Positions 2,581 through 54,050 are shown, numbered from the stretch's first letter. The stretch is DNA of 64,000 bases from Candidatus Tayloriibacteriota bacterium (GCA_943350765.1 CALRAJ010000003.1:65456-129455), one strand, 5' to 3'. Numbers and translations are program-made. Notes: generated by a model from the letters alone, not told the origin.

Positions 2581-2692
2581 CCTTTCTTAGCATATCTTTT
2601 TGAAAGCACGAGTATTTCTTTGCTAAGAAATCTCTCAAGTCTCAGCTACCCGCTTCCGAAGTCTTTCAAAAAGATACGCCTGCGACGGTATT
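2581..2692 (+). repeat. MITE-like structured repeat, family F1 copy A
   Basis: Shares the core agcatatctttttgaaagcacgagtatttc...tctcaagtctcagctacccgcttccgaagtc...aaaagatacgcc with 27990-28112, 40420-40557(-), 47851-47991 and 53969-54050(-). Confidence 0.6.
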
Positions 2693-2730
2693 TTGTAATT
2701 TTGGGTATATTATTAATTATAAATACAATC

Positions 2731-3333
2731 ATGTCTAAAAAATATATTGCAGAATTTATTGGAACATTTACACTTTCGTTTATTGTTTTGGTTGCGGTGG
2801 CTCACAAAGGTGGTTTGCCTATGGCGATACCACTTATTGCTGGACTCACCCTGGCACTTTTTGTATATTCGATCGGGTCTATTTCCGGATGTCATATCAA
2901 TCCGTCAGTTACTATTGGACAGCTGTCGGTCGGCAAGATTTCTGGTAAAAATGCTTTAAATTATATTATCGCTCAGATTTTGGGTGCGGTAGGTGCTATA
3001 TTTGTGGCTAAAATGCTTTCGATTGCTAGTCCAATGTCAGCGAGTGATTTCAGTAGCAAGGCATTTTTGGCTGAGGCCCTTGGCGCCTTTTTCTTTAACT
3101 TTGGGATTGCCTCTGTGGTATATGGAAAAGCCAAGGAGCAGATGTCGGGTCTAGTGGTGGGAGGGTCATTACTTTTAGGAGTGCTTATTGCATCGCTTTC
3201 AGGCGCTTCGGGAATACTCAATCCTGCTGTAGCACTGGCACTAAACTCACTTTCAGTTGTATATATCCTTGCACCTATTGTTGGTGCGATACTTGGTTTT
3301 CAGGTGTACAGATTTGTGGCTGAGGAAAAATAA
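2731..3333 (+). CDS. MIP-family channel (aquaporin / glycerol facilitator)
   Basis: SGCHINPSVT and LNPAVALA are the two NPA-type boxes; 6 TM helices. ATG at 2731 follows the F1 repeat; the track start at 2620 lies inside the repeat. Confidence 0.8.
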   Translation: MSKKYIAEFIGTFTLSFIVLVAVAHKGGLPMAIPLIAGLTLALFVYSIGSISGCHINPSVTIGQLSVGKISGKNALNYIIAQILGAVGAIFVAKMLSIASPMSASDFSSKAFLAEALGAFFFNFGIASVVYGKAKEQMSGLVVGGSLLLGVLIASLSGASGILNPAVALALNSLSVVYILAPIVGAILGFQVYRFVAEEK

Positions 3334-3341
3334 AATAAAAA

Positions 3342-3366
3342 GCAGGCGGTCTTGTGGACGGCCTGC
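3342..3366. terminator. bidirectional hairpin between convergent genes
   Basis: gcaggcggtc ttgt ggacggcctgc inverted repeat. Confidence 0.4.
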
Positions 3367-3371
3367 GGGAG

Positions 3372-3689
3372 CTACTTAACCTGTTTTGGCTTTTGACCTG
3401 TGGATTTGGGACTCTTCCTTCGGACGAAGCGATACTTGAAGATTCCGTCTTCGTTGACTAGCAACTCTGCCGTCAAACCAAACAGCTCGGCGAACATACA
3501 GGACAGGTCGTTTATTTGACCGATAGTCGCCACCAAGTAGAATTTATCATCCCCGTCTACCTTGACGATTTTTCTACCAGCTCTGAAAAACGCAACTGTG
3601 TTTGCACCTGCATCCCATGTACAAGTATCCCCGTGTTTCAGACGAGTTCGGGTCAGCTTACCATTACCATTATTGCTTTCAAGATACAT
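3372..3689 (-). CDS. hypothetical protein with Lys-rich C-terminus
   Basis: 105 aa ORF flanked by terminators on both sides. No recognisable motif. Confidence 0.3.
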   Translation of the reverse strand: MYLESNNGNGKLTRTRLKHGDTCTWDAGANTVAFFRAGRKIVKVDGDDKFYLVATIGQINDLSCMFAELFGLTAELLVNEDGIFKYRFVRRKSPKSTGQKPKQVK

Positions 3690-3790
3690 TCCATACCCTT
3701 TCCTTTTGGTTGTTTCTTCTCAAAGACCTCACTGCTTAGTATAGCATTAAACACCATGGCTTGTCAAGTCTTTTGTTTGTAAAATAAAAA

Positions 3791-3812
3791 TCCCCACATA
3801 AAAAATAGGGGA
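3791..3812 (-). terminator. hairpin tccccacataaaaaatagggga plus T-tract on the minus strand
   Basis: Lies downstream of the minus-strand desaturase gene. Confidence 0.4.
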
Positions 3813-3833
3813 TATGTGTCACTTATGAAGGTT

Positions 3834-4766: not shown

Positions 4767-4844
4767 AGTCAGGTTTAGGTTTTGTCGATGAGCCGTCCGT
4801 CATAAGTATATCAAAGTTAGTGCGTATATACGATTATTATAAAT

Positions 4845-6155
4845 GTGTTGTATACTAAACATACAGTGGAAAAAAGTAAAAAAGATTTCAATGGACTAAT
4901 TGTCGCTAGTATTGTTGGAGGTGTTTTTGTGATTGCACTTGGAGTTTTTTATATTTTTCCAAACCAGATACTGTACGCATTAGTGGCAATCAAAGGGGCG
5001 GGTATTCAGCTGGCGTCTGTTGTCCTGAGGCATGATTTTAGGTCTGTGGCAGAAATTAAATCTAATTATGCTGATGCAATAAATACCAATAGCTCCCTAC
5101 AAACCCAAAAGAAGGTCCGTATACTTATAGTTCCTGGACATGAGCCAGGCTATGGTGGCTCAGAGTACGCCTCCCTAAAAGAGAGGGATATGACCGTAGA
5201 GCTGGGCATGTATTTGCGAAAGTTTTTGGAAAATGATTCTCATTACGAAGTCTTTATTACTCGTGATACAGAAGTCTGGCATCCAGACTTTACAATGTAT
5301 TTTAAAAATAATTGGACTGATATTGCGGAATGGACAAAGGCGTCTCGAGAGGAATTTTCTAGTTTGGTGTCATTGGGATCGGTGGCGAGAACAGTTTCGA
5401 CGGTCGTACATAACAACGCTCCTAAATCCGTCGCACTTCGTCTCTATGGTATTACCAAGTGGGCAAATGAGAATGCAATCGACATCACTATCCATATCCA
5501 TTTTAATGACAACCCTAGACGCAATACAAGTATAGCTGGTAAGTACTCTGGTTTTTCAATATATGTGCCAGCAAGCCAGTACGGCAATAGTTCGACCACA
5601 AGGGTTATTGCAAGTACGATTTTTAATCGTTTGGGAAAGTACAATTCAGTCAGCAATCTCAAGGGGGAATCAGTTGGAATTATCGATGAGCCAGATTTGA
5701 TCGCTATAGGGGCAAATAACACAGCCGATTCAGCGAGTATGTTGATTGAGTATAGTTATATTTATGAGCCACAATTTCAGGATTCACAAGTGAGTAGTTT
5801 GGCAATAAAAGATTTAGCATTTCAGACATACTTAGGTCTGCAGGACTTTTTTGACCCGAGTACTTCTGCTACACGGAGTCTACCTGACACATCTATTTTG
5901 CCTTATGAGTGGAGTGGTACTTTGTTGGATTATAATTCCTCAGGTCAAGAAGTGTATGCTTTGCAGACAGCAATGATGGGTGATGGCGTCTATCCTCCTC
6001 TCGGTAAAGATAAAAACGATTGTTCTCGAAGTGGTGGTTTTGGTCCTTGTACGCGAGCCTCGCTTGAAGCTTTTCAAAATAAGTACAAAATCACTGGTGA
6101 AACAGGGGTGGTAGGGAAGAAGACCTTGGTGGTGTTGAAGGGGTTGGATTTATAG
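4845..6155 (+). CDS. cell-wall amidase (N-acetylmuramoyl-L-alanine amidase-like) with C-terminal peptidoglycan-binding domain
   Basis: N-terminal TM anchor. Amidase_3-like IHIHFND motif. The C-terminal GQEVYALQTAMMGDG...LEAFQNKYKITGETGVVGKKTL resembles PG_binding_1. Confidence 0.55.
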   Translation: MLYTKHTVEKSKKDFNGLIVASIVGGVFVIALGVFYIFPNQILYALVAIKGAGIQLASVVLRHDFRSVAEIKSNYADAINTNSSLQTQKKVRILIVPGHEPGYGGSEYASLKERDMTVELGMYLRKFLENDSHYEVFITRDTEVWHPDFTMYFKNNWTDIAEWTKASREEFSSLVSLGSVARTVSTVVHNNAPKSVALRLYGITKWANENAIDITIHIHFNDNPRRNTSIAGKYSGFSIYVPASQYGNSSTTRVIASTIFNRLGKYNSVSNLKGESVGIIDEPDLIAIGANNTADSASMLIEYSYIYEPQFQDSQVSSLAIKDLAFQTYLGLQDFFDPSTSATRSLPDTSILPYEWSGTLLDYNSSGQEVYALQTAMMGDGVYPPLGKDKNDCSRSGGFGPCTRASLEAFQNKYKITGETGVVGKKTLVVLKGLDL

Positions 6156-6204
6156 GCATTTTTTTGTAGTTGCACTTTATTAATCAGAGTACTATAATAT
6201 CAGT

Positions 6205-6795
6205 ATGAAAGAATTCTTAAAGAAAAACTTTGCGATACTTCTAGCTTTTATACTGCCTATATTACTTATAATAATCGTGGCTTTGACAGCATATCTTCCG
6301 TCACTTTTTCTTTCCACAAATTATAATTTTGTCTATACCTCATGTACAGACGGTAGGGGCTACTACCCATATCCATGCGCCAACTATCTTCAGAAACGCT
6401 ATTCTGTAGTAGATAATAAATTAGTCACAAATCCTGTCGATACCACTCAAGATTCTGATAAAAATGGTGTGCCAGACTTTAGTGAAAAGTACTCTGACAG
6501 AATCTTTTTGCACGATACAAAAAAGAATGAAAGCAGAGAGATAACCCTAAAAGAGGCACAGCTACTCACCCTAAATGATCTTTTGACCTCAGCTGATGGA
6601 GTTACTGTTTCTAGTGCGTATGATAGGAGGGGTAATGACTTTTCATTTATTTTTGGTGGAGGATCCTCTACCTATGGTTACTATCTTACAAAAGGGAATA
6701 GCCGTAGTAAAATAAACCTCATAAACAGTAGTGATCAGTATTATTACCAAAACAATTTCCAATTTATGGGCTGGGTATTACCAGGTAGAAATTAA
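6205..6795 (+). CDS. hypothetical membrane-anchored protein
   Basis: N-terminal TM helix only. Confidence 0.35.
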   Translation: MKEFLKKNFAILLAFILPILLIIIVALTAYLPSLFLSTNYNFVYTSCTDGRGYYPYPCANYLQKRYSVVDNKLVTNPVDTTQDSDKNGVPDFSEKYSDRIFLHDTKKNESREITLKEAQLLTLNDLLTSADGVTVSSAYDRRGNDFSFIFGGGSSTYGYYLTKGNSRSKINLINSSDQYYYQNNFQFMGWVLPGRN

Positions 6796-6818
6796 TAGTA
6801 GTAAGCACTAAATTTATT

Positions 6819-7799: not shown

Positions 7800-7837
7800 G
7801 TGCAAAAACTGTTTTTGCTTGTTTTTCCATTACAATT

Positions 7838-7984: not shown

Positions 7985-8740
7985 ATGTTAGAAAAATACC
8001 TTCAAGAAATAGGGCTTAATGAAAAAGAGGCGAGCGTGTACCTAGCCTTACTCCAATACGAAAATGCTTCAGCGATTGATATTTCTGAAAAAACTAAGAT
8101 CAACCGTTCGACCACATACACAGTTTTGGAATCACTGGCAAAAAAGGGTCTAGTAAGTGAGACGACCGTAGGTGTAAAAACTCGATATCACGCAGAATCA
8201 CCAGAGCGTTTGGAGTCTTTTGTTGAAAGACAAAAAGTTATTCTAGAGGAACACTCAAAGCGCTTAAAGGACATTATTCCACAGATCAAGAGTGTGCAGA
8301 GAGAGAGCGGAGAAAAACCGATCGTTCAGTATTATGATGGAAGGGAGGGTATTATTACCTCAGCAGAAAGACTCTATGAGAAAAATGATGAGGGCGGGGA
8401 AGTCTATTTGATGTACTCACGCGACCTGATTACAGATATTTTTTCAGAAACTGAAAATAAAAAATATAGAAAAATAAGACTTGATAAGGGTATTAAGTCC
8501 AAGGTTCTGTACACATACAAAACAGGTGAGCTAAAATCCGATGAAATGGGCGACAGAGTAAAGATTGATGGCGAAAAGTACCCAATAAAATGTGATATTG
8601 CAATATATAAGGATAGAGTACGAATAAACACTCTCACAAAATCTTTATCTAGCGTTTTTATTAAGAGTCAGGATTTGGCGGATACTCTGCGAAGCCTATT
8701 CGACCTAGCACATGATTATATAAAAAAAAGTCGGCCATAG
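7985..8740 (+). CDS. TrmB-family transcriptional regulator
   Basis: N-terminal wHTH LNEKEASVYLALLQYENASAIDISEKTKINRSTTYTVLESLAKKGLV. Start taken at MLEKY. Confidence 0.7.
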   Translation: MLEKYLQEIGLNEKEASVYLALLQYENASAIDISEKTKINRSTTYTVLESLAKKGLVSETTVGVKTRYHAESPERLESFVERQKVILEEHSKRLKDIIPQIKSVQRESGEKPIVQYYDGREGIITSAERLYEKNDEGGEVYLMYSRDLITDIFSETENKKYRKIRLDKGIKSKVLYTYKTGELKSDEMGDRVKIDGEKYPIKCDIAIYKDRVRINTLTKSLSSVFIKSQDLADTLRSLFDLAHDYIKKSRP

Positions 8741-10220
8741 TTACCTATGACCGACTCGCGTACTAGCTTTTAGTATAAATCTATTTCCGATGCCCTTTTC
8801 GTGCTAATCAGAATGATTTTACTAACCAATGAGGTGATTTTTCCCCTAATCAGACTTCACCATAGACTTTACCTTGCCTGCTGGGGTTTTCCCCTTAATC
8901 GGACTCGCCGCTGTGCTGCATAATAGGCCTTTTGGCTTGTTGTTTGTGGTGTGCCTGAGAGAACTCGACTGGAGTGGGCTTCCAATACCGTGTTCTAGTG
9001 CCAATGAGGTCCACTAGAACACGGTACTTTCTGCCTAGCTTAGTCGCTCATTGTGTCCTCCTTTGGCTACAGGTGGCTAGTATTGCCGGCGTCTCATGAC
9101 ACCACCACCCTACATCCAAAAGACAGTATATACTATCTGCGGTACATTTGTCAAGTATTACTAACATTTTTCATGACTAAGGCTATATTACTAGCCATAT
9201 TTTCATATAAATCAACGATTAATAGCCATTTTAAGTGTTTTTAATAAATGACAGAATTATTTTATTAAGAATTATAAAAATAATATGTCAAAGAAATACT
9301 AATAATGTTATATCTCAATAACACTTATATATGTATAAATAGCTTTAAATAAGGATATCATGGTATTTAAAAACGAGAAGTGTCAAAAAGGCTTGACAAA
9401 AATACTGTATCGTGTATACTCATGCACAGATTGATTTTTGATTGCGTTGGGTACTTCTTTGTGTTTCTTTAAAAAACTTCTCGGCCTCCCAGTAATACAG
9501 TGGGGTTTTAAAGAGAACATTTTTGAGAAGCACAAAGAAGTATCCAATTTTATACCAAAATGCACATCATGAGTGATGGCACAACCATGACCCACGCTGA
9601 GTGGCTCGCATGGTTGCGCGGGGAGTAGAAGTACTTCCTATGCTGCGATTGCAGAAATGTGATACGCGGGGTTTGGGTGTCTACCTGGCAAAATAAGGAC
9701 ACAGCAGATCAGAAACAATCAACGGAGAATTTTAAGATTCTCCACTTCATTGGGTTTACAACATTGTGTTGCAAATCCATAGAGTTTAGCTCTTTGAATA
9801 AAAACATTAGGTGTCTGCACTAAATTGTGTTTATGAGAAATGAGAAAGTATAAACATAGCTTAGTGCAGATACTTTGCATGTATCCGAGCACCAGTATCA
9901 CTGATGTGGTGATACGAAGGAAAGTAGGTATATCGTTTGTCGATCCAACAAACTCGCAGGGGGAAATCCTCGGAGTATTGATGGTTGATAAACGAGCCTG
10001 ACGGTACAGAGAACGGCTCTGATTACCGGACTTACTGAGCCCTAAACAGTTATTAGGCTGTTATGGGGGAGGGTAATAACTCCCGCTGACGAAAAGCTAT
10101 CGTCAGTACTTGGTGGATGAATGATCCCAGTGGATCGTTCGGAGGTTGTAGATAGGTCGCGACCTGTCTAGCCTCCACTGCATATAGTTTATTTCGATGC
10201 CCCCAGACACATGGTCTGGG

Positions 10221-10296
10221 TTCTGTCCGAGAGTATTTGCTCTCGCTGATGAGTCCGACCTATAGCGTAAAACGCTTGGCCATGAGGACGAAACAG
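10221..10296 (+). ncRNA. hammerhead ribozyme motif HHR1 (type-III-like topology)
   Basis: cuGUC | stem I cgagaguauuugcucucg | CUGAUGA | stem II gucc...ggac | GAAAC | ag. Predicted cleavage after C10227. Confidence 0.6.
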
Positions 10297-10621
10297 AATG
10301 TTCTTTAAAATAAGTACATCTACGCAAATAGTGTTTGAAATATCGATCACTGCTTGCGCAGATGTACATAGAAGACATCAAAGCGCCCACGGGCGACCGT
10401 GAGCACTTGATATTTGGAGCAAAATAAGGGCGTTGACCTTTATTTTGGAACCATGCAACTTCCGATTCATTTCGGAAGGCTTTTTTCAAGTTAAATCAGC
10501 TTCATTGCTGGATGTTGGATGATCACCGACAGGTAACCACTCGAATATTATTTGAGTGAACCACTTCTAGACTTCCTCCTTCGTAAATCCTGCCTAACTT
10601 CGGGTATAGGTTGAAGGGGGT

Positions 10622-10696
10622 TTCTGTCCACGAATATCATTCGTGCTGATGAGCTAGTCTAATACCGCATGGAGGTTGATGACAATAGCGAAACAG
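10622..10696 (+). ncRNA. hammerhead ribozyme motif HHR2
   Basis: cuGUC | stem I cacgaauaucauucgug | CUGAUGA | stem II cuag..uag with large loop | CGAAAC | ag. Cleavage after C10628. Confidence 0.5.
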
Positions 10697-10847
10697 AATG
10701 TTCTTTGAATAATTCGTCATAGCAGAAAGTGGCTCAAGTCTTGGGCTATTCTCCGCTATGACGAAACCTGTCGGTTACGTATAGCAAACGCACCCAAACC
10801 TTTTAAATAAGGGTTGTTTAGCGATAACGTTACCGCCTTGTAATATT

Positions 10848-11465
10848 ATGAATAACAATAAATTCAGCCTCGGTCGTAGTTCAGAAAATCTGGTGGTTCT
10901 CAAGAACGGTCAACCGTTCTTCACCAGTCCCATTGCAAACGCTTGCATGGGTTCCCTGGAAGTTGGACTTCAACTTCCTAATCTCCCTGTGACCAAGAAA
11001 GACGACAGCGTCTGCACTGGTTACATGGAGCCTTACTGGGGTAATGCCCATACCGAAATTCTCGTTGCTGGAGGGAGTTGCTGTGATGGTTACTTGATGG
11101 GCGTAAGTCCTGACGGTAAACTCACAAAAATTCTTGCCATCGACTTCAACATTCGATGCATCGCACCATTTATCTACACCATTCCTGCAAAGGAAGCTGG
11201 GAAAGATGAGCATGTGATGCTCGGGTTGTTGGTTTCGGGATCAGGCTGTTCGGGTTGCGGTGTCAGGTTTGTGGATTTCAATAGGCCAACACCTATTTCC
11301 ATGCCTGTCATTTCAACCGAGGAAGCGGCGAAGCGTTCCAACTTCTGGCTTAACGGCGGTGACCCATTCAGCGTTGCTGATATTTGGGACCGTTTGGCTA
11401 AACTCGGCATCACTGCTGACAAGGAGAGGACCGCAATGGCTTCAAAAGCCTTCGTCGCCTTCTAA
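10848..11465 (+). CDS. hypothetical protein (cassette ORF A)
   Basis: 205 aa, Cys/Gly-rich. No recognisable domain. Confidence 0.45.
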   Translation: MNNNKFSLGRSSENLVVLKNGQPFFTSPIANACMGSLEVGLQLPNLPVTKKDDSVCTGYMEPYWGNAHTEILVAGGSCCDGYLMGVSPDGKLTKILAIDFNIRCIAPFIYTIPAKEAGKDEHVMLGLLVSGSGCSGCGVRFVDFNRPTPISMPVISTEEAAKRSNFWLNGGDPFSVADIWDRLAKLGITADKERTAMASKAFVAF

Positions 11466-11556
11466 CGAACAGAGGGACTGCGGCATCGGCACGCGGGCTA
11501 TGCATACTAGCTGGCAACAGAATAGTATGAACCGGGATTAGTAATTTACTAATCAA

Positions 11557-11607
11557 TACTGTCCGAGAGTGCGTACTCTCGCTGAAGAGCTCAAAAGAGC
11601 GAAACAG
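11557..11607 (+). ncRNA. hammerhead ribozyme motif HHR3 (minimal)
   Basis: cuGUC | cgagagugcguacucucg | CUGAAGA | g cuc aaaa gag c | GAAAC | ag. Cleavage after C11563. Confidence 0.6.
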
Positions 11608-11924
11608 AATGTTCTTAAAACCAAAAATCTTTAACCTCCGCTTTATTTATTTTATTCCGAAATAGAATGCATAAAGCGGAGGTGTAAAGAACGCCACTCC
11701 GACTTCACCGAAGGGAAGGGCGGTGGTCGTAACCACTGTCAGCAACTAAACCGCACTCAAACATTGGCAGGTTGAAAACTGTCTTGGGTAATTCCAGATA
11801 ATGAGCAGTCATTATTATTTGAGAGGTGTAGTTGCAAGCTATAAATCATAAGCCAAGGGTGGCAAATTACCACCCTGTTGATTTATAGAAGGAGAATGCT
11901 CAGTAATTCAATACCCAGCCTTCT

Positions 11925-11982
11925 CCACTTTATTGAGTTCATAAAGAAATTTGTGGATTCATAGAGTTCTTTGAATTTTATG
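11925..11982 (+). promoter_or_regulatory. conserved leader hairpin motif, copy 1
   Basis: ctttattgagttcata...tgtggattcatagagttctttgaattttATG. Stem tgagttcata/tgtggattca holds only if GU wobbles are allowed. Homologous to 13051-13124 and 15818-15886. Confidence 0.5.
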
Positions 11983-12228
11983 TGGTATGACTGGGAATGG
12001 ATACAGTGGGCCAAGGAAGAGTGGTGGTATCTGGAAGTTAAACCTGAGAGTCCTCTCGGGAGGAAAATCAGATGGAAACTTCTGGTGAAAGCCGCTCTTG
12101 CTTATCTGCGTTCCGGAAAAGTCCAAGAAGAAAACTCAACCATCAGGGATGCCGTCAGGCTGGCACACGGGTGGGTGCAGAGTAATTTTCAGGGAATCGG
12201 AGTGTGGTTGGGCACTGGTCAACACTAA
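11980..12228 (+). CDS. hypothetical small Trp-rich protein (cassette ORF B)
   Basis: ATG at 11980 (MWYDWEW...), directly after the leader motif. Short, so low confidence. Confidence 0.3.
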   Translation: MWYDWEWIQWAKEEWWYLEVKPESPLGRKIRWKLLVKAALAYLRSGKVQEENSTIRDAVRLAHGWVQSNFQGIGVWLGTGQH

Positions 12229-12314
12229 CCATTTAAAACTGCCATATAAGTATGGCGGAGCACGGGTCACGGCTTGGCAACAGAATTGTGACAAATAAAT
12301 CTTGGTGTGCAGAA

Positions 12315-12397
12315 ACATGTGATGATACAGCATTATAAATGTATCCGTAATTCCTCGGTGAAGTTCCGAGGCGCCTGACGAGCGGAAATTGTTGGGG
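12315..12397 (+). repeat. composite intergenic repeat, blocks X plus Y, copy 1, continuous with HHR4
   Basis: acatgtgatgatacagcattataaatgtatccgtaat followed by hairpin ccucggugaaguuccgagg and cgccugacgagcggaaauuguugg. The same blocks recur at 16278-16384 and partly at 12854-12907. Confidence 0.55.
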
Positions 12398-12411
12398 ATC
12401 GCAAGATTCTC

Positions 12412-12466
12412 CTCTGTCTCGGAATGTGTTATTCCGACTGATGATGACTCAAAAGAGTCGAAACAG
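12412..12466 (+). ncRNA. hammerhead ribozyme motif HHR4 (minimal)
   Basis: cuGUC | ucggaauguguuauuccga | CUGAUGA | ug acuc aaaa gagu c | GAAAC | ag. Cleavage after C12418. Confidence 0.6.
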
Positions 12467-12538
12467 AGTGTTCTTTAAAATATATTTCATAGCACAGTCT
12501 CATTAAAGGGTCGATTTTCGATTTGATGGGAGTGTGCT

Positions 12539-12769
12539 ATGAAATATAAAACAAATTGGAAGCCGATTGTAGGAAGTCTCGATGAGTTACCTGTGCTAAG
12601 GAGCGCAACAACCCTAAGTGGGGTTGTTGAGTCAGCTTCTCGGACAGGGTCACTCGTTGTCCTTCTCGACGATGGAAGCAAGGTTGGAGTTTCAGGTGGA
12701 AAATATGCCCAAAAAGGACAAAGGGTCATACTCACTGATGGGGCTGATGGAGGTTATGTTGTGGCCTAA
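12539..12769 (+). CDS. hypothetical small protein (cassette ORF C)
   Basis: 76 aa, Gly/Val-rich. Confidence 0.35.
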   Translation: MKYKTNWKPIVGSLDELPVLRSATTLSGVVESASRTGSLVVLLDDGSKVGVSGGKYAQKGQRVILTDGADGGYVVA

Positions 12770-12853
12770 AAATCCAAGGTAATCCTAGCGGAGGCTAGTA
12801 CAACACTCACCACTCCCGCACATTCTCGGTGGGACAAAAAGTGGTCAAATCAT

Positions 12854-12907
12854 GGGACGTAATTCTTCGGGGAAGCTCCGAAGCGCCTAGCGAGCGGAAA
12901 TTGTTGG
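12854..12907 (+). repeat. partial X'-Y repeat without hammerhead
   Basis: gacgtaattcttcggggaagctccgaagcgcctagcgagcggaaattgttgg, homologous to 12340-12397. Confidence 0.5.
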
Positions 12908-13050
12908 TTTGGTAGTTGCTCCACAGCATACTTTATGGCACTTGCGTGTTAACTACTCAAGTGCAAAGGATCTACTCGTAGGCTTGATGGGTGAACCCGT
13001 CGGCATAAGAAAGAGTTGGCAAAAGATCCTGCTTGAGAACCACCTATTCT

Positions 13051-13124
13051 CGAGCACTTTATTGAGTCCATACAGTGAAATATTCTTATGGACTCATTGA
13101 GTGATTGTTTTTTGTGAATAAAAT
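13051..13124 (+). promoter_or_regulatory. conserved leader hairpin motif, copy 2
   Basis: gagcactttattgagtccata cagtgaaatattct tatggactcaa, a perfect 11-bp stem. The ATG of ORF D lies 27 nt downstream. Track ORF 12909-13100 overlaps it and is probably non-coding. Confidence 0.55.
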
Positions 13125-16384: not shown

Positions 16385-16398
16385 ATCATAAGATCCTC

Positions 16399-21082: not shown

Positions 21083-21226
21083 AATTTACACAAAGATACA
21101 AAATACGACTGTGACGGTCGATCGTTTGTGATCGATCGTCCACAGATGTCTATCCCTAATCGATAGACCAACTGTAGACGGCATTTCGTAATTTGGGGTA
21201 TTTATCACCTTAGCATATCCCATATC

Positions 21227-21263
21227 TAAACGGCTAAACACTAGTGTTTAGCCGTTTAGCCTT
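21227..21263. repeat. palindromic REP-like element taaacggctaaacactagtgtttagccgtttag
   Basis: Same family as 1369-1397 and 34873-34908. Confidence 0.5.
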
Positions 21264-27964: not shown

Positions 27965-27989
27965 ATGGGGGTATTACTTATACTGAGAG

Positions 27990-28112
27990 CCATAAAATTC
28001 TTTCTCGGCATATCTTTTAAAAGGCACGAATATTTTCTTGGTAGAAAATTTCTCAGTCTCGGCTACCCGCCTTGCGAAGTCCTTTTAAAAGATACGCCTT
28101 CAACGAATTTTA
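27990..28112 (+). repeat. MITE-like structured repeat, family F1 copy B
   Basis: Terminal inverted repeats ccataaaattc...gaattttatgg flank the conserved core. Sits in the metG leader. Confidence 0.6.
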
Positions 28113-28137
28113 TGGCATGGCGAAAGATTTGCTTTAT

Positions 28138-34872: not shown

Positions 34873-34908
34873 CTAAACGGCTAAACACTCGTGTTTAGCC
34901 GTTTAAAT
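34873..34908. repeat. palindromic REP-like element ctaaacggctaaacactcgtgtttagccgtttaaa
   Basis: Same family as 1369 and 21227. Lies downstream of recA, so it is a likely terminator. Confidence 0.5.
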
Positions 34909-39559: not shown

Positions 39560-40414
39560 ATGATATTATCAAACAATACAGAACAAAATAATCAAACTAG
39601 TGAGATAAAAGACATAGCAATCTTTAAGGATAAAAGATTCTGTCTTTTTGTTTACAAAAAGACAGGCAGACTGTCTGCTGGTGTGTATGTAGTAACCAAT
39701 CTCCTATCGGACAGTGAGCCATTAAAATGGGAACTCAGAAAGTGTACACAAAAGCTCGTTACTAGCTCGACAGACGAAAGACTTTTTCACACATCATCTT
39801 TGCATACAGTGGTTACTACTTTACATACTCATTCGCTCGCGATACTTTCTCTTCTTGAGGTGGCATTCTACGCAGGACTGATAACTGAGATGAACTATTC
39901 AATACTTAGGCAAGAATTTATGATTTTTATTTCCTCAATCGAAGAAAAGCTCGATGGCTTTTATGGGACTGTTGATGTACTCGATTCTCGTTTCTTTGAA
40001 CTTGGAAAAGAGTATCGACTTTCAAGGAATGATTTTGATCGAGAGAATAAGTCCAGAAGCAATGAGCGGTTACAATATGCGTCTAAAGGACAGCATATAG
40101 GACAGAAGAAAGATAAGGATTTTAATATTACATCAAATCAAAATAGTGACCCCAAAGCCCTATCTATATCTAAAGGACAGACTAACACGGCTGAACAAAA
40201 GAAATATCTAAAAAACTCAAGAAAGGAAAGTATTTTGAATCTTTTAAAAAACAAAGAATCATTGACCATTAGAGACTTTTCAAACAACATAAAGGACTGT
40301 AGTGAAAAGACTATCCAGAGAGAGTTACTCAGTCTGGTTACTTTGGGTGTCCTAAAGAAGGAGGGTGAAAGGCGTTGGAGCAGGTATGCAGTGGCGACAA
40401 ATATTATAGAGTAA
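39560..40414 (+). CDS. hypothetical protein with C-terminal winged-helix-like domain
   Basis: C-terminus TIRDFSNNIKDCSEKTIQRELLSLVTLGVLKKEGERRWSRYAV. Confidence 0.4.
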   Translation: MILSNNTEQNNQTSEIKDIAIFKDKRFCLFVYKKTGRLSAGVYVVTNLLSDSEPLKWELRKCTQKLVTSSTDERLFHTSSLHTVVTTLHTHSLAILSLLEVAFYAGLITEMNYSILRQEFMIFISSIEEKLDGFYGTVDVLDSRFFELGKEYRLSRNDFDRENKSRSNERLQYASKGQHIGQKKDKDFNITSNQNSDPKALSISKGQTNTAEQKKYLKNSRKESILNLLKNKESLTIRDFSNNIKDCSEKTIQRELLSLVTLGVLKKEGERRWSRYAVATNIIE

Positions 40415-40419
40415 GTGCT

Positions 40420-40557
40420 CAAATTACGAAATGCGTTGAAGGCGTATCTTTTTGAAAGACTTCGGAGACGGGCAGTCGAGACTTGAGAGATTTTCTACCA
40501 AGAAAATACTCGTGCTTTCAAAAAGATATGCCGAGAAAGCATTTCGTAATTTGGGGA
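40420..40557 (-). repeat. MITE-like structured repeat, family F1 copy C (inverted orientation)
   Basis: Terminal inverted repeats caaattacgaaatgc...gcatttcgtaatttg flank the conserved core. Confidence 0.6.
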
Positions 40558-40636
40558 ATATACCACCTATAGACGCTATTTCGTAATAGGGTGTACCTAC
40601 CTAAACATGCTTTACTCAGCCTCCCCACTTTTTTCC

Positions 40637-47347: not shown

Positions 47348-47348
47348 G

Positions 47349-47627: not shown

Positions 47628-47850
47628 GAATGTACTTGCGAAAATAGTACAAAAAAAGTTATACACAGCACAGGAAAATAATGGGCATGCTATACTCTTT
47701 GGGTAATGAATTTTTACAAAAAAGAATATTTCTTTACCGTTGTCTGTGTTTATTAATAATTAACTTTTAAAAAAGTAGCTTTTTGTAAGCTACTTTTTTG
47801 TTTTAATCTATGAAAAAGTCTGTATATTTATCTACTTTCGTGTCTAAGGT

Positions 47851-47991
47851 ACCCCAAATTACTAAATGCTTTCTCGGCACATCTTTTAAATGGCACGAGT
47901 ATTTTTCTACTGAAAAATTTCTCAAGTCTCAGCTACCCGCTTCCGAAGTCCATTTAAAAGATATGCCTTCAACGCATTTCGTAATTTGGGG
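47851..47991 (+). repeat. MITE-like structured repeat, family F1 copy D
   Basis: 18-bp terminal inverted repeats ccccaaattactaaatgc...gcatttcgtaatttgggg. Confidence 0.6.
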
Positions 47992-49555
47992 TAAGGTAGT
48001 ATGTCTGGTATTTTTATTTACCTCCTGTTTTGCTTTTCAAAGCACTCTGGTGTCTGCATCAGTCGCAAACATCACTCAAACCGCTTTTACGACTTCGGCA
48101 CAGACAGTCGCTACGAGTGCGGTCTCAGAAAAGCTCACCATACAAACTCAAAATACCGGTGGTACCGAGGAACAGCTCGATGAGACAGCCGACCTCACTC
48201 TCGGTTCCTCCTCTGCGACAGGGGAGTTTTCCTCGAGTGCCACTACTTGGAATCCAGATACTGTAATCACAATGAGTAAAAATTCTGCCAATCGTTCATT
48301 TTATTATAAAGATTCTGTAGACGGCACATACACCATTACAGCTACGCTTTTGACGCGTACTACTCAAAAAAGTTGGACGACTACTCAGACTATTATTGTG
48401 GGTACCGGGGGATCGGGAGGAGGTACTACTAGCACAACTACCGACACGACCACAGCGACGACCACCGATAGCACTATAGCTACTTCCACAGCATCTATTG
48501 TTGGCAGTACATCGTCTCATTCTAGTGGTAGCTCTATAGCTAGAGATCCTGAGCCGATAGAATTTGAGATTTTTGGAGGGAGGGACAGACTAGCTATGGT
48601 TGGTGCACCTGTTACTTTTCAGGCCAAAATCGTGATTATTAAAAATGTTTCAAGTCCATCGAGGTATCTATGGTCGTTTGGTGACGGCTCAGCTCATGAT
48701 GGAGCAAAAGTTGATCATACCTACCTAATTCCTGGTGAGTATGCAGTGGTACTCAATGCAGACGCTTATGAAAGCAATGCTGTGTGGCGAGGTAGGGTTA
48801 CGGTAGTATCTCCAGATTTTTCTATTAGTACCTCAACCCCAGAATATATAGAGGTGTGGAACAAATCAGCATTTGAAAGCAATTTAAACGGCTGGAAAAT
48901 ACAAAACGGCAAAGAATCTTTTACTTTTCCTCTAGATACTATTATTCCCGCTCATAAAAAAGTGGCTTTTCCATATCAGGTTACCAAAGTGTCTTCCGGA
49001 CCAGATTTTTCACTAGAATTGTATAATCCGTCCTTAAGAGTGGTTACAAGCTGGAAAGCCCCAGTGTTGGCGAATGTTCCCGTCGCAATATCCACTAATC
49101 TTGCTTTAACAAACATCATATCTGGCTCAGCTTTGCTCACCAGTGCATCATCTGCTGAGGACATTGATATCCTATACAAAAAAGCTATTGCTATGAGAGA
49201 TGAGTGGGAAGCTGTGAATAGTCCTGATGTTAAGGTAAGTGAAAATGAGAATGAAGTCGTTTTGCCGAGACAAGCTTCACTAGCACTAGTTGAGTCAAGT
49301 GTCCAAAAACAAGCAAAAACGGTAGTCGAGATTGAGCCAGAAGAAGTAAAGACCGAAAAGCTAGCAAAGGTCTTGGTGGAGGAGGCTATCCCAGAAAAAG
49401 TTAAAAATATCGAGCCTGTCTCAAAAGGTAAAGGCCAAACTGCTTCAGCGATCACTATTTTGCCAGAAAGTAGTGAGACGACACGGGGATTTTTTGGTAC
49501 AATTATGTCATGGCCAGGTCGAAGCTTTCGTTTTGTGAGAGATTTAGTATTTTAA
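47961..49555 (+). CDS. secreted Ser/Thr-rich surface protein with PKD domain
   Basis: Candidate signal peptide VVCLVFLFTSCFAFQSTLVSASVA; PKD motif WSFGDGS...HTY. Start is uncertain: the track start 47810 reads through the repeat, and ATG 47961 lies in its last 30 nt. Confidence 0.5.
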
Positions 49556-49736: not shown

Positions 49737-50324
49737 ATGAAAAAAGATATTTTACGCGTCATTGTGGGAGTTTTTATTTTTGCAACTTTGGTGGTAGTCG
49801 GACTGTATTTTTATGGTTTGTATTTACCTGATATAAATAGCTATTTTGCAAAGAGGGAGGAAGCGATAATTTTACAGAGAATGGAGGCAGAAAAGCAGGC
49901 TTTCAACGAGCTACATAAAAAAGATATTGAGGGTGGGGTAACACCTGAGGAAACATTTGACCTACTTATCACTGCTCTAAAGGCTGGTAATGTCGAGCTT
50001 GCGAGCAAGTATTATGTACCGATTTATCAAGAGGAGGCTAGGAAGGGGTTTGAGGAGGAGATTAAAAAGAATGGTGGGTTGGGGAGGAGTATCGAATCTT
50101 TTGTTGGAGTTAGGATGAATGCAAAAAAAGAGTGTGCAAATAGTGCAGGTGAATTGGGTGGATGTACTTTTGAATATATTTATACTGTAGATAAAGATGA
50201 AGTCGCTGATGTTGCAGGGAGACCAGAAAAGCTATTTTTTCCTAAAGGAAGTAAAGCATCACAAACTGTAAGTTTCTGGCTAAATCCATATACTAAAAAA
50301 TGGAAAATAAAAGATCAACCATAG
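49737..50324 (+). CDS. hypothetical membrane-anchored protein
   Basis: N-terminal TM helix and charged coiled segment. Confidence 0.35.
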   Translation: MKKDILRVIVGVFIFATLVVVGLYFYGLYLPDINSYFAKREEAIILQRMEAEKQAFNELHKKDIEGGVTPEETFDLLITALKAGNVELASKYYVPIYQEEARKGFEEEIKKNGGLGRSIESFVGVRMNAKKECANSAGELGGCTFEYIYTVDKDEVADVAGRPEKLFFPKGSKASQTVSFWLNPYTKKWKIKDQP

Positions 50325-50325
50325 A

Positions 50326-53300
50326 ATGAAGTTTTTTCAAATACTTTTGGTTTTTTGTATTTCATTCCTCACACCTTTTGTCGCATCTGCTTATCAGCCA
50401 CGCACTACTCATGCAGGACTCACTGAGCAGATGATAGAGTTTTATAACTCTTCCAACTCAAAACCTATTGGTACCCCAGATATGGAGCTAATAGTGCAAG
50501 CATCTGTCGACGAGGATTTCCTCACTCGTCCACTCAATCATTTTTATGATCCTATTCGCAATATCGGTATCAACAACGCTCGTTCGTCAAAAGTCTGGGC
50601 AATAGATGGAAGTATTGTCGAGAATGACTATTCGTGGCCAAAGGCAATCCGTGCCTATGCCGAGGGTAAGGACAGGCAGGCTCTGATCGGTCTCGGGCAT
50701 ATTTTACACCTCATCGAGGATTTATCTGTCCCTGATCATACTCGTAATGATCCCCACAAGGGTGATGGGCTAGAAAACGGCTTTACAGGAGAAAGTCCGT
50801 ATGAAAAGTGGACAAATGATACAAAAAATAGGGAGACTCTCAAGGGGCTTGCTCGTTGGTACCTGGTAGATGGGAGTAAGGCCTACCATTTCAATGATCT
50901 AGCTCAGGCTTTTGACTTTCTTGCTGGCTACTCTAACTATAACTTTTTTAGTCGGGATACTATTGTTAATAAGATTTATCAGTATTCCAACCCACTATTA
51001 AATGACGGAGATGGACTGTATCTGTATTCATTTGATAGTATAAATAAAGATAGACATAAACTACTAAAAATAAATAGAGACAAGGTTACAGGAAAGATAG
51101 AATATGTACTAGTAACAGACAACGACAAATCCGTCCTCTCCTCCTATTTCGATCGTCTTGCTAAACAAGCAATACTCACTGGTGTAGGAGTTATTGAGCT
51201 TTTCTTTAGAGAGGGCGAAAAAGCTCGTGCCGAGTACAAAATCGAGCAAGTAAAAGCAGAACAGGAGAAGATTGCCAAAGACGAGGCTATAGCAAAGGCT
51301 CAAGCAGATAAAAGCTACCTAGGAAAAGTAGTAGCTAGTATCGGCACTACTTTTAGTAACTACATTACAGAGCCTATAGTAAACACATCCAGACAGCTTG
51401 CCACGACTGTGTCGGGTGGAGCGACAGGTATCAGCCAAGCTTCCGGACACTACAGTGCTTTTTTGTTTTCAAGCAGTGCTTTGGCTGTACAAGAGGGTAA
51501 AGAGGCGGTAGTAGTAGAAGCCAATAAAGTCAAAGCTACCATAGCTCTCGCGACCGCTCAGGTAGCTACGATTATTCGACAAACCATAAATCAAAATATC
51601 GATACTAGTTCCCAAGTCGCTTCAGCATCTGAAATTGTCTCCCCACCAGCTAAAAATATAGCTTTGGCGACACCTACTTCCGAGATAAAATCCGTAACTA
51701 TTCCAACACCGCCTATTGTTGAAAAAGTTATCAAGGAAATTTCCACCATTATCCCGTCATTTTTTTATAACGGCGGTGGGGGAGGTGGTTCAAGTCAGAC
51801 TGCCAGAGTCATACAGCCCGAAGTAGTCATCGAGGATACTGCTACCAGTACCGCCACGACCAGCACACCTACTTTACCAGCTTCATCACTACTCTCATTT
51901 AATGTTACCGAATGCTCGCATTCATTAGTCGTGGGTATCTGTGCTGTAGCTACTAGTACCATCAGACTTTCTTGGCAGGCAAGCACCACTCCAGACTATT
52001 TCCAGGTCGCTATGAGTGGCACTCAAGATGAAATAGCCACAACCACAGAAAATCAAGCTGAAGTACTACTTTCTGGGGCGGGAACATATACTTTTTTGGT
52101 GGAGGCTTATGCTAGCACAACCTCATCTACCGCCTACGCCTCATCTACACAAACCGTAGTTGTTCTGGAAAATCCAGTAGTGATAAACGAAATAGCATGG
52201 TCAGGCACTAGTGCTACGACGACTGATCAGTGGCTCGAGCTTTATAATAATTCTACCTATAGTATCGACCTTTCAGCCTTAAAAATCACCTCACTAGATT
52301 CAAACTTTTCTATAAACCTTGGTGGAGTTATTTCCTCACACGGATACGCTTTGCTCGAGCGGGGAAGTGATCAGGTGGTGCAAAATATCTCCGCCGATAT
52401 GGTCTACGAAGTCATAGAAACCTCCCTACTTCCTGATACAGGTACCGCGCTTTCGCTACTTTGGAGCGACACAATCATAGACCAAATTCCCGACAGCACT
52501 TTCTTTGGTTGGACAGCAGGAAATGAAAATGTTTCGATGGAACGCTTCAGTACTACAGTTTCCGGTAAAGATGCTGACAATTGGAGTTCAAACCTCGTCT
52601 ATGTTTCTACAGGAAATGATTCTTTGGATAGTCCAATCTTCGGTACACCTCGGCAGAAAAATAGTATTTCCTATTTGATTAACAAAGGGCAGATCATTGA
52701 AAGCCCTGTCACGCTTACGATTGAAGATAGTCCATATATTATAGAGGGTGATTACGATATGTCAGTGATAGCTTCGACAGGTAGTCTTGTTGTAGATCCT
52801 GGAGTGGTTATCAAAGTATATAATTCATACCCTGTATATTCCAATGGGCAATTAAATATTCACGGTACAGTTTCAAATCCAGTCATTTTTACAAGTGTAT
52901 TAGATACAAGTGTGGGAGCTGGTATTCCAATACGCACAGAACAGGTCGTGGGTGGAAATACTTTTGCTGGCATCACACTTTATGATGGTTCCGAGGGGTC
53001 GGTTATCAATAATTTACAAATAAAGTCAGTAAAGAAAGGTATTACTTTTAATAAAACCAATGCAAAAGTGGACGGTCTCTCTATTTCAAATTCAGACAAT
53101 GGTATTACTATAAAAGACGGATATATTACTCTAAACAATATACAGCTCGAGAATATCCAAGAAGATGCGATAAGTGTGTATGGGGGTGAAATGATTATAT
53201 CGAGCAGTACTATTTCGGGGGTGTATGATGGAGATGCTATTGCTCTATACACCGCATCGTCATCTATCACTGGCGTTTCGATTTCTGGATTGGATGATGG

Positions 53301-53787
53301 TGACGCCTTCGGTCTTTATGATTCATTTGCAACACTCGACAATGTATCTACTTTAGATAGTATGGGTGGCTCCGCACTTGGTATGTACAGTAGTTTTGCA
53401 ACCACCACTAGAAGTGTCTTTAAAAATGGTTTGTTTGGTATCGAGCTGTATTCATCTGCTCTACATATATCGACCAGCACTGTATCTGGATTTGAGCGTA
53501 CGGGGATTTCTGGGTATTCAAGTAATCTAGTTATATCAGGAGTAACTGTTTCGAGTAATGCTACGGGTATCGATGCTTATGGAGATTTTATGTCCATTGA
53601 CTACAGTAATATTTTTGGCAATACCGACTACGGTCTTTATTATGCTGGGTCGGGCATACTACAGGTTATGCATAGCTGGTGGGGTGATATGACAGGACCA
53701 TATCATGAGACGGATAACCCAGCGGGTCTAGGAAATGGAGTTTATGGGTCGGCGGACTTCTCAGGGTGGCTTTTGGAAGCTATCTAA
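50326..53787 (+). CDS. large secreted multidomain protein: lamin-tail domain plus right-handed beta-helix repeats
   Basis: Signal peptide. VVINEIAWSGTSATTTDQWLELYN...ALLERGSD matches the LTD fold. C-terminal repeated G-rich beta-helix units (NSDNGITIKDG...). Confidence 0.55.
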   Translation: MKFFQILLVFCISFLTPFVASAYQPRTTHAGLTEQMIEFYNSSNSKPIGTPDMELIVQASVDEDFLTRPLNHFYDPIRNIGINNARSSKVWAIDGSIVENDYSWPKAIRAYAEGKDRQALIGLGHILHLIEDLSVPDHTRNDPHKGDGLENGFTGESPYEKWTNDTKNRETLKGLARWYLVDGSKAYHFNDLAQAFDFLAGYSNYNFFSRDTIVNKIYQYSNPLLNDGDGLYLYSFDSINKDRHKLLKINRDKVTGKIEYVLVTDNDKSVLSSYFDRLAKQAILTGVGVIELFFREGEKARAEYKIEQVKAEQEKIAKDEAIAKAQADKSYLGKVVASIGTTFSNYITEPIVNTSRQLATTVSGGATGISQASGHYSAFLFSSSALAVQEGKEAVVVEANKVKATIALATAQVATIIRQTINQNIDTSSQVASASEIVSPPAKNIALATPTSEIKSVTIPTPPIVEKVIKEISTIIPSFFYNGGGGGGSSQTARVIQPEVVIEDTATSTATTSTPTLPASSLLSFNVTECSHSLVVGICAVATSTIRLSWQASTTPDYFQVAMSGTQDEIATTTENQAEVLLSGAGTYTFLVEAYASTTSSTAYASSTQTVVVLENPVVINEIAWSGTSATTTDQWLELYNNSTYSIDLSALKITSLDSNFSINLGGVISSHGYALLERGSDQVVQNISADMVYEVIETSLLPDTGTALSLLWSDTIIDQIPDSTFFGWTAGNENVSMERFSTTVSGKDADNWSSNLVYVSTGNDSLDSPIFGTPRQKNSISYLINKGQIIESPVTLTIEDSPYIIEGDYDMSVIASTGSLVVDPGVVIKVYNSYPVYSNGQLNIHGTVSNPVIFTSVLDTSVGAGIPIRTEQVVGGNTFAGITLYDGSEGSVINNLQIKSVKKGITFNKTNAKVDGLSISNSDNGITIKDGYITLNNIQLENIQEDAISVYGGEMIISSSTISGVYDGDAIALYTASSSITGVSISGLDDGDAFGLYDSFATLDNVSTLDSMGGSALGMYSSFATTTRSVFKNGLFGIELYSSALHISTSTVSGFERTGISGYSSNLVISGVTVSSNATGIDAYGDFMSIDYSNIFGNTDYGLYYAGSGILQVMHSWWGDMTGPYHETDNPAGLGNGVYGSADFSGWLLEAI

Positions 53788-53862
53788 AAATCATCTATGA
53801 GCAGAGGTGTTTTATGAGAGCTTATTTGCACAATCCACGAAATTTTTTACTAAAAATTTCGT

Positions 53863-53968
53863 GGTCGCGTAGCGATTAGTCCTAAAAAGGTGGTTCGGAA
53901 CGCGTCGGCTGAGACTTCAGGTTTTGACGGGCTAGCCCGTCCGTACCCTTCCGGGGCGGAGTAGTAAT
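53863..53968 (+). repeat. repeat family F2 copy 1 (upstream of the r-protein operon)
   Basis: aaaaatttcgtggtcgcgtagcgattagtcctaaaaaggtggttcgga...gagacttcaggt...ccgtaccc, homologous to 59611-59740. Confidence 0.5.
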
Positions 53969-54050
53969 AGCAAAAAAGAGACTTCGGAAGCGGGTAGCTG
54001 AGACTTGAGAGATTTCTTACCAAAGAAATACTCGTGCTCTTTTTTGGTAT
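53969..54050 (-). repeat. family F1 copy E (core only, inverted), inside or adjacent to F2 copy 1
   Basis: aaaaaagagacttcggaagcgggtagctgagacttgagagatttcttaccaaagaaatactcgtgctctttttt is the reverse complement of the F1 core. Confidence 0.5.

Follow-up and report, generated by a model that had tools for sequence, protein, structure and literature searches.

A hairpin repeat family built on a conserved three-way junction in Patescibacteria: dynamic dispersed copies and a class that abuts promoters

Introduction

Is a short palindromic repeat that recurs between the genes of a Patescibacteria genome a piece of mobile DNA, a functional RNA, or a structured site in the double helix? The question is raised by a 64,000-nucleotide stretch of DNA from Candidatus Tayloriibacteriota bacterium (GCA_943350765.1, CALRAJ010000003.1:65456-129455; analyzed as a whole and called the window here), in which an earlier note, made from the sequence alone, had listed five copies of a repeat that we refer to as F1. 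Patescibacteria genomes are about 1 Mb in size and are thought to be almost repeat-free and regulator-poor, so finding a structured repeat about once every 10 kb was unexpected. We find that F1 is an undescribed family of hairpin elements across Patescibacteria, built around a conserved three-way junction and divided into dispersed copies (class A) and copies that adjoin promoter-like sites (class B).

Results

F1 copies share a covarying three-way junction

All five copies that had been listed (c1 to c5, in order along the window) are present. A 30-nt string from their core occurs exactly three times in the window, where shuffled sequence leads one to expect it never. A covariance model, R1, with 27 distinct copies as input (92 positions, 33 base pairs) was run on the window with filters off and returned exactly six copies, namely the known five, which scored 95–106 bits on one strand and 14–21 bits on the opposite strand, and a diverged sixth that the earlier note did not contain (59634-59726, + strand; 55.5 bits, E 1e-11 to 1e-13). 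All other R1 matches reached at most 27.5 bits and were generic hairpins with near-equal scores on both strands, the best of them being the reverse strand of copy 6 itself. Inspection also revealed a half copy (53873-53950, + strand) in tandem with, and directly upstream of, c5. F1 is thus a non-coding element of about 95–145 nt, found at a density of six copies in 64 kb; as had been noted, every copy is intergenic and either orientation is seen. The window sequence is 100% identical to GCA_943354485.1 (CALRBY010000009.1) and to one ENA contig.

Each copy consists of a long variable stem, P1, around a conserved center of about 55 nt that forms two hairpins, P2 and P3, so that the fold is a three-way junction. 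From 5' to 3' it reads as 5' arm, internal loop, P1 (about 18–20 bp), GAC-UUCG-GARRC-GGGYA-GYY-GAGAC-UUGAG, the P3 hairpin, CGUGC, P1', internal loop and 3' arm. P2 is a composite of UC/GA pairs, tandem G.A, a covarying 3-bp stem and a GGGYA loop, P3 is a 10-bp hairpin with a bulged A, and the joiners of the junction are short and purine-rich. The earlier description of a long hairpin therefore holds in that the ends pair with each other, and has to be amended in that the element is not a plain hairpin.

Comparative evidence for this fold is strong at each helix. In a MAFFT alignment, 97.8% of P1 cells were paired and both sides had changed in 17 of the 20 pairs; P2 was 100% paired, and P3 was 99.3% paired with covariation in 8 of its 10 pairs. 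Controls in which the register was slid gave 40–46% paired cells, and none of 500 shuffles matched the observed values. The top 26 ranks by mutual information were all proposed pairs, and RNAalifold independently produced the identical three-way junction (covariation term −11.2), adding two invariant pairs (UC with GA) that lengthen P2. These UC/GA pairs become UG/CA in a set of diverged copies that we term type 3. Type 2 junctions, carried by copy 6, the half copy and copies in the related loci L014, L017 and L022, differ from type 1 at four linked positions, including a change from C20-G46 to G20-C46. (L-numbers denote related loci, the relatives having been read as windows of at most 21 kb.) No covariation was seen for a loop-loop pairing of GGGYA in the P2 loop with ACCA in the P3 loop.

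Every copy folded far more stably than shuffled sequence, with z-scores from −3.9 to −9.3. The strand assigned to each copy throughout this text is the better-folding one, on which the loops and joiners are purine-rich; it is always the reverse complement of the core orientation used in the earlier note. Wobble pairs on the chosen strand were asymmetric, with 35 G.U versus 9 A.C.

Three other identities for the junction were considered and rejected. A scanner placed an internal promoter, TTGAGA-16-AATACT, inside the junction of four copies, which we set aside because its −35 is lost in variants (GAC-TGAG, GACGGAG, TTCAG) and its 'spacer' is a covarying hairpin. A hammerhead or kink-turn junction was dismissed by inspection, as the joiners misfit both CUGANGA/GAAA and a kink-turn with a 3-nt bulge. 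The complement of the junction resembles 'AGUCCCAGCUACUCGGG', the motif of the Alu domain of the signal recognition particle (SRP), and we treated this likeness as chance because no SRP model scored and the common bases stand in different structural contexts.

F1 is distributed across Patescibacteria and matches no known family

Exact-pattern scans located F1 at eight loci in genome collections, all in metagenome-assembled genomes (MAGs) of Patescibacteria, and at 12 metagenome loci, with no match among viral contigs. The MAGs are FW305_bin.8, Candidatus Taylorbacteria AH-24oct19-230, an 'uncultured Ca. Saccharibacteria' MAG and ADI_H3L2 bin016, and the labels of the carriers are Taylorbacteria, Saccharibacteria and "Patescibacteria group". 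R1 added diverged copies in L022, L029 and L030, loci that had been chosen without regard to the element. A search with Rfam 15 (4227 models) gave no match at gathering level except 23S rRNA, and at E ≤10 the copies c3, c5 and copy 6 drew only chance matches to microRNA-like hairpins. These null scans rule out known ribozymes, riboswitches, SRP RNA, 6S RNA, leaders and small RNAs. We found no F1 match in phages, in plasmids or, by blastn, in 5,426 complete E. coli genomes, and no description of F1 in the literature, including by its sequence strings.

A Pfam scan of 40 flanking proteins from the window and related loci detected no transposase, all neighbors being housekeeping genes, and no transposase, reverse transcriptase or recombinase adjoined any examined copy. 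A possible replication-strand bias was uninformative, as GC skew is positive over the whole window and F1 copies lie on both strands.

Class A copies come and go, duplicate and invert among close relatives

Class A comprises c1 to c4 and most copies from other loci, each with junction, P1, a purine 6x6 internal loop and outer arms. The internal loop is conserved (GUYGAA opposite GAGAAA), and the arms share homology over their inner 12–14 nt from copy to copy and from genome to genome (AATTNCRAAAWTYC). The outer ends and the arm lengths (8–26 bp) vary, even inside one contig (the window; L015/L020), and yet the arms remain complementary, as the earlier note had observed. All four combinations of orientation relative to the flanking genes occur, and the downstream genes are unrelated, including those for an aquaporin, metG, a PKD protein, murD, dnaA, DHFR and others.

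We reached close relatives via MetRS homologs 88–90% identical and found four syntenic sites to be polymorphic. The spacer between the AI-2E transporter gene and metG holds c2 on the − strand in the window and a + strand copy in L022, and is empty in L021 and L023 (65- and 62-nt spacers). L022 carries a class B copy between TatD and rpsF and a class A copy between EFP and recA, both spacers being free of F1 in the window, and the site of c3 is empty in L022. F1 copies, at least the loose ones, are thus clearly neither confined to the places first listed nor perfectly syntenic, the combination that, according to the earlier note, would have spoken for a non-mobile element. At the AI-2E|metG site of L022 the homologous arms have kept their place around an inner unit that is inverted as a whole, internal loop included. 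The window and L022 copies have rare junction variants in common, which suggests a single ancestral insertion that was flipped later. AI-2E and metG abut in syntenic relatives at 60% identity, the spacer being absent.

Duplication is seen in L030, where a pair of type 3 class A copies separated by 9 kb is identical at 127 of 130 positions (97.7%). The limits of this identity coincide exactly with the hairpin ends AATTACG...CGTAAT, and the flanking bases show no duplication. A flanking direct repeat was found only at c4 (TAAGGTA), with none at about 20 other class A copies or at the L030 pair. Taken together, these comparisons show class A copies being gained, lost, duplicated and inverted between close relatives, and show that class A behaves as non-autonomous mobile, or at least very dynamic, DNA.

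Two further observations concern the same loci. L030 is a Taylorbacteria-like contig that encodes an IS110-family transposase (DEDD_Tnp_IS110 plus Transposase_20) and an rve_3 integrase (546-1604 and 5181-6488), and these genes lack flanking F1 arms. A second small palindromic repeat, AAACGGCTAAACACTNGTGTTTAGCCGTTT, occurs in the window at 21228-21257 and 34875-34904, and L022 has kept the copy that lies in the EFP|recA spacer.

In the window, c1 (2566-2705, − strand) lies between a YgjP-like gene and the MIP (aquaporin) gene, with arms at 2566-2582 and 2687-2705, P1 and junction at 2589-2680, a GUCGCA/AAGAAA 6x6 internal loop, an R1 score of 105.1 bits and a fold of −43.8 kcal/mol (z = −6.3) on the − strand versus −33.6 on the + strand. 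The copy between the AI-2E transporter gene and metG, c2 (27989-28116, − strand), has arms GCCATAAAATTC / GAATTTTATGGC around P1 and junction at 28007-28098 and scores 95 bits. Starting 3 nt past the stop codon of the open reading frame (ORF) 39560-40414, c3 (40417-40556, + strand) has arms at 40417-40434 and 40539-40556, P1 and junction at 40441-40532, 106.5 bits and the fold of −62.3 kcal/mol (z = −9.3). The arms of c4 (47852-47991, − strand; P1 and junction 47876-47967; 99.6 bits) read CCCCAAATTAC[T/G]AAATGC, and its direct repeat TAAGGTA occupies 47845-47851 and 47992-47998. Outside these copies, the solo 5' arm CCCCAAATTACGAAATGC at 21181-21198 (− strand) is an exact match to the arm motif, as reported earlier, and is the relic of a truncated class A copy, because only GTC of the internal loop remains after it. 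A degenerate arm-like motif, GCTATTTCGTAATAGGGT, stands 16 nt past c3 (40573-40590, + strand), a weak likeness in sequence only.

F1 also has practical effects on annotation and assembly. ORF starts are over-extended through it at ORFs 2620.., 28072.., 47810.. and 54114.., as the earlier note had warned, and public annotation is affected: the gene call for the PKD/LTD protein (581 aa; L024 6462-8207) starts inside c4. The true start of this protein is likely the ATG at 48002, 10 nt from the end of c4. Short-read assemblies are broken as well, two short contigs of other assemblies terminating inside c4, as expected because c4 is a repeat.

Class B copies adjoin promoters of translation genes in a fixed orientation

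The fifth copy had been recorded as core only, a description not borne out here, as c5 represents a second architecture. Class B comprises 13 copies: c5, copy 6 and 11 in other loci. Beside the junction, the 5' strand of their P1 has an A-tract and the 3' strand has a U-tract, and their internal loop is small and GA-rich (3x3 or 4x4). Orientation equals that of the downstream gene in 13 of 13 copies, and in 11 of the 13 the end of P1 is followed after 7–10 nt by the −35-like hexamer of a strong promoter-like site, with at most about 3 nt between the closing helix of the element's foot and the hexamer. Nine of these hexamers begin TTGAC and two read TTGCAA and TTTACT; the exceptions are the rny copy, with a gap of 19 nt, and the gatA copy, which lacks a clear −35. 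The genes that follow are those for 23S rRNA (window), 16S rRNA (L006, L020), rpsS (window, L003), rpsP (L002, L019) and rpsF (L022), together with pheS, a gatA-like amidase, rny (RNase Y), a PKD protein and a 70-aa ORF.

A terminator-like hairpin usually stands upstream of class B copies. In five loci it is AU-rich, reading GAAAUUUUU...AAAAAUUUC in four of them (at 53835-53864, before copy 6, and before the class B copies of L002 and L019) and GAUUUUU...AAAAAUC in the L006 variant, and its outer pairs covary (CCACG/CGUGG, CAGG/CCUG, CUAG/CUAG, CCGG/CCGG). With this hairpin upstream and a promoter downstream, class B lies between terminator and promoter. A scanner for intrinsic terminators flagged nothing at any copy. 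Class A lacks a U tract, and the U5-6 of class B is the 3' strand of P1, 5 nt after P3, with the same arrangement on the complementary strand. As a terminator, class B would be an atypical bidirectional one at best.

The c5 copy has a syntenic ortholog upstream of rpsS in FW305_bin.8 (L003 6185-6276). Between the two, the 60-nt junction is identical and the promoter is about 85% identical, and the sequences of the P1 arms are unrelated, yet each pairs at 17 of 18 positions. Such turnover of a stem with pairing kept is what long-term selection on the structure, or its active maintenance, leaves behind.

In the window, c5 (53956-54063, + strand; P1 and junction 53963-54054; 100.2 bits) has a type 1 junction, a small GGA/GAA internal loop and a 3' foot, GCGAAGCCG, that touches the −35 hexamer of a promoter-like site directly after it (TTGACT-16-TATGAT with TG, 54064-54091, + strand; 10 of 12 matches). 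This site, conserved in L003, would serve the rpsS operon (ATG at 54129; S19 Pfam match). The half copy upstream (53873-53950) retains the 5' P1 arm, P2, P3 and CGUACCC of a type 2 element without the 3' P1 arm, is alignable to copy 6 as far as CGTACCCTT, and has a counterpart in L003 6305-6363 (30.5 bits). The AU-rich hairpin CCACGAAAUUUUUU-ACU-AAAAAUUUCGUGG (53835-53864, + strand) precedes this class B module, and CAGGAAAUUUUUU-GCC-AAAAAUUUCCUG (59594-59621, + strand) stands upstream of copy 6. Copy 6 itself (59624-59735, + strand; P1 and junction 59634-59726) has a type 2 junction, a UGUA/GAAA internal loop and a 3' foot, GCGAAACCG, touching the −35 hexamer of TTGACA-17-TATACT (59736-59764, + strand; 11 of 12 matches), a promoter-like site about 430 nt upstream of the 23S rRNA 5' end at 60198.

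Several features of the adjoining genes are recorded here in their own right. Two Taylorbacteria-like contigs have a 16S gene bracketed by F1 (L006 1180-3500 and L020 10483-12798), with class B preceding the promoter and an oppositely oriented class A copy just past the 3' end. In the usual S10 operon rpsS follows rplB; here (50326-54470) rpsS heads its own transcription unit after a 1153-aa LTD-domain protein and not after rplB. The 23S gene (60198-64000), with no 16S gene preceding it inside the window, has a promoter of its own, and among its insertions is a long hairpin of about 100 nt (60979-61081) whose A/U-rich stem recalls the P1 of F1 in style and which obtains only a generic R1 score of 22 bits.

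The window also contains a hammerhead array unrelated in sequence to F1

An ORF-poor region of about 4.4 kb (8740-13100) contains type III hammerheads on the + strand at 10222-10298, 10623-10698 and 12413-12468, with variant cores near 10063 and at 11559-11612, spaced 400–900 nt apart and unrelated in sequence to F1. The cores are complete (UCUGUC...CUGAUGA...CGAAACAGA), and one reaches 41 bits against RF00008 (E 1.2e-6), just below gathering. The same region carries long inverted repeats at 9447-9547, 9811-9873, 10713-10765, 11634-11683 and 12481-12548 and a 50-nt direct repeat at 12346 and 12858.

Discussion

The explanation that we favor, at an even chance of being right, is that F1 is a Patescibacteria-specific hairpin family whose class A is mobile in trans and whose class B has been co-opted by the host. 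Class A would have been moved by an enzyme supplied in trans that recognizes the invariant junction on a single-stranded (hairpin) intermediate and not the element ends, a logic like that of REP/REPIN-RAYT or IS200/IS605-type systems. The complementarity of the arms may be kept by selection or by template switching that corrects palindromes, and inversion may proceed by recombination between the arms. As judged from sequence comparison, class B has probably been co-opted, because it is syntenic and fixed in orientation and because orthologous copies keep their pairing while the stem sequence is wholly replaced. Its most plausible role would be that of a transcription insulator or back-up bidirectional terminator, or of a protein-binding platform, acting just upstream of strong promoters. 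The earlier preference for a MITE (miniature inverted-repeat transposable element) or REP-like repeat over a regulatory leader thus largely stands for the loose copies, and fails for a strict MITE with terminal inverted repeats, given the target duplications and termini observed. The judgment that F1 is no classical cis-regulatory RNA is likewise sound for dispersed copies in both orientations, and had missed the promoter-abutting class B, the junction and the spread of the family over several Patescibacteria lineages.

Several points weigh against this explanation. The mobilizing enzyme was not found within the roughly 0.4 Mb examined (the 64-kb window plus about 330 kb of related loci), where the neighbors are all housekeeping genes, and the insertion sites show neither a target duplication nor a target motif with any consistency. 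Some of the gain and loss could be due to gene conversion, or to the loss of unstable palindromes by deletion, and not to transposition. The strand asymmetry owes much to a handful of states that recur, G4.U92 in 12 copies among them, so that the assignment of strand, and of RNA versus single-stranded DNA, is tentative. The invariance of the 5' half of the junction is partly a matter of ascertainment, since an exact core pattern from that half served to retrieve 27 of the 38 distinct copies; the conservation of P3 and CGUGC is free of this effect, and copies found by the model alone agree. For class B, the upstream gene is divergent at 2 of 11 sites, so insulation from read-through is not the whole explanation.

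The alternative that survives best, although we think it rather unlikely, is that F1 is a host-encoded functional RNA module whose junction binds a conserved Patescibacteria RNA-binding protein or RNase, and which would sit in many transcripts (5' untranslated regions, 3' ends, operon spacers) for stability, processing or termination, its copies multiplying and persisting through usefulness. The junction sequence is extremely conserved across lineages whose flanking proteins are at most 60% identical, the helices covary as in a functional RNA, the internal loops are purine-rich, one G.U pair is conserved, and class B is kept at orthologous sites. Most copies are also probably transcribed, because they lie 3–30 nt from stop or start codons, and promoter-like sites upstream of c1 and c4 would put both in 5' untranslated regions. 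However, class A occurs in either orientation, and for three of the four window copies transcription would yield the complement of the better-folding strand. At one spacer, two relatives carry the element in opposing orientations and two more lack it, which is unlike a needed cis-acting module, and class B lies upstream of the promoter and downstream of the terminator, a stretch expected to be poorly transcribed.

Less probable again, and in our view quite unlikely, is that F1 acts as double-stranded or cruciform DNA, as a supercoil-sensitive site or a site for a nucleoid- or topoisomerase-type protein by the −35, tuning strong promoters while dispersed copies organize supercoil domains. REP/BIME elements bind gyrase and IHF. 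The fixed distance between the class B foot and the −35 of promoters for ribosomal RNA and ribosomal proteins, between terminator and promoter, would suit such a site, as would the abundance of A-tracts and T-tracts in P1 near the junction and the orientation independence of class A. Against it, a cruciform requires both strands to fold, whereas the wobbles favor one strand by the margin given above, and a non-palindromic center of about 55 nt makes extrusion costly; the conservation of asymmetric joiner sequence and the covariation in P2 and P3 are hard to explain for duplex DNA.

We regard as decidedly improbable a classical MITE, that is, a deletion derivative of an insertion sequence (IS) that is mobilized when a DDE transposase (IS630/Tc1-like with TA targets, for instance) recognizes its terminal inverted repeats. 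Class A copies do all end in inverted repeats, with homologous inner arms (AATTNCRAAAWTYC); c4 has its flanking direct repeat, several left flanks end in TA, and the element is small, non-coding, multi-copy and polymorphic in insertion between relatives. Yet terminal bases and arm lengths vary within one genome or contig, a target-site duplication of fixed form is wanting even at the near-identical L030 pair, and the best-conserved part is internal and not terminal. No transposase flanked by the element was detected in the window or the related loci, and the IS110 and rve genes of L030 have no element arms nearby.

To see in the junction a new gene for a catalytic or small RNA, such as an undescribed self-cleaving ribozyme, riding on a retro- or DNA-mobile unit strikes us as a long shot. 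Hammerhead and twister ribozymes do travel with repeats, the same genome has the hammerhead array at 10.2–12.5 kb and with it repeats that bear ribozymes, and the compact three-way junction, with its invariant joiners, variable closing stems, many copies and an apparent tertiary pair (C20-G46 to G20-C46), would suit such a reading. However, no Rfam ribozyme family is similar at E ≤10, no reverse transcriptase is nearby, and the C-G to G-C change amounts to one contrast between two states, 33 copies versus 4. Finally, an ordinary cis-regulatory leader or riboswitch of the downstream genes is scarcely tenable, since orientation and synteny contradict it: although c1, c2 and c4 lie directly upstream of start codons and class B is always co-oriented with the downstream gene, class A precedes unrelated genes in both orientations, orthologous leaders have the element present, absent or inverted, and class B lies upstream of the predicted promoter.

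Returning to a mobile family with a co-opted class, a bolder and doubtful extension would make the three-way junction the recognition or catalytic core of a new Patescibacteria system, with the junction as ribozyme or with a protein partner, spreading as a hairpin element and recruited by the host as a standard module at the −35 of promoters for ribosomal RNA and ribosomal proteins. If true, this would amount to a phylum-specific control or insulation of the translation-apparatus regulon, in organisms that, to our knowledge, lack most classical regulators. In any case F1 offers a well-supported structured motif for RNA family libraries, a handle on the organization of transcription in an uncultured phylum, and a marker of a putative mobilizing activity.

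How does F1 compare with known systems? RNAs linked to mobile DNA (hammerhead, twister, HEARO/omega RNAs, IS605-orfB motifs) share with it a conserved junction, covarying helices, several copies and a variable closing stem. Unlike them, F1 has no associated protein gene or Rfam match, and the long stem takes up its 5' end as well as its 3' end, leaving no guide-like free end. Correia/NEMIS elements of Neisseria and the RUP and BOX elements of Streptococcus are, like F1, small structured intergenic repeats that change where transcripts end, create promoters or adjoin them, and give rise to artifacts of annotation and assembly. In Correia and RUP the terminal inverted repeats are conserved, TA is duplicated and an IS partner is presumed, whereas the termini of F1 are variable, its duplication is inconsistent and its conserved part is internal. 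ERIC/IRU, the enterobacterial repetitive intergenic consensus, an imperfect palindrome of about 127 bp, is close to F1 in size, conserved center, intergenic location, occurrence in both orientations, probable transcription and presence or absence between related species, but has no reported three-way junction or promoter-abutting class and no sequence similarity to F1.

Further close parallels are the REP/BIME and REPIN elements of Proteobacteria, which act as single-stranded hairpins, are mobilized by RAYT (an IS200/IS605-like Y1 transposase) and can be co-opted by the host. Like F1, they are extragenic, palindromic, high in copy number and found in either orientation, with no internal transposase and no target duplication, and the density of REP in E. 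coli, about one per 8–10 kb, is comparable to that of F1. F1 differs in belonging to another phylum, with no RAYT identified in the 64-kb window or in the windows of relatives. The foot tetranucleotide of REP (GTAG in E. coli) has a possible counterpart in F1 only at the foot of class B, where GUAG or GAAG occurs in the small internal loop, on the 5' side in some copies and on the 3' side in others, and it is absent from class A. A REP is a simple hairpin of 20–40 nt and a REPIN is two inverted REPs, whereas the center of F1 is an asymmetric, conserved three-way junction of about 55 nt accompanied by a purine 6x6 loop.

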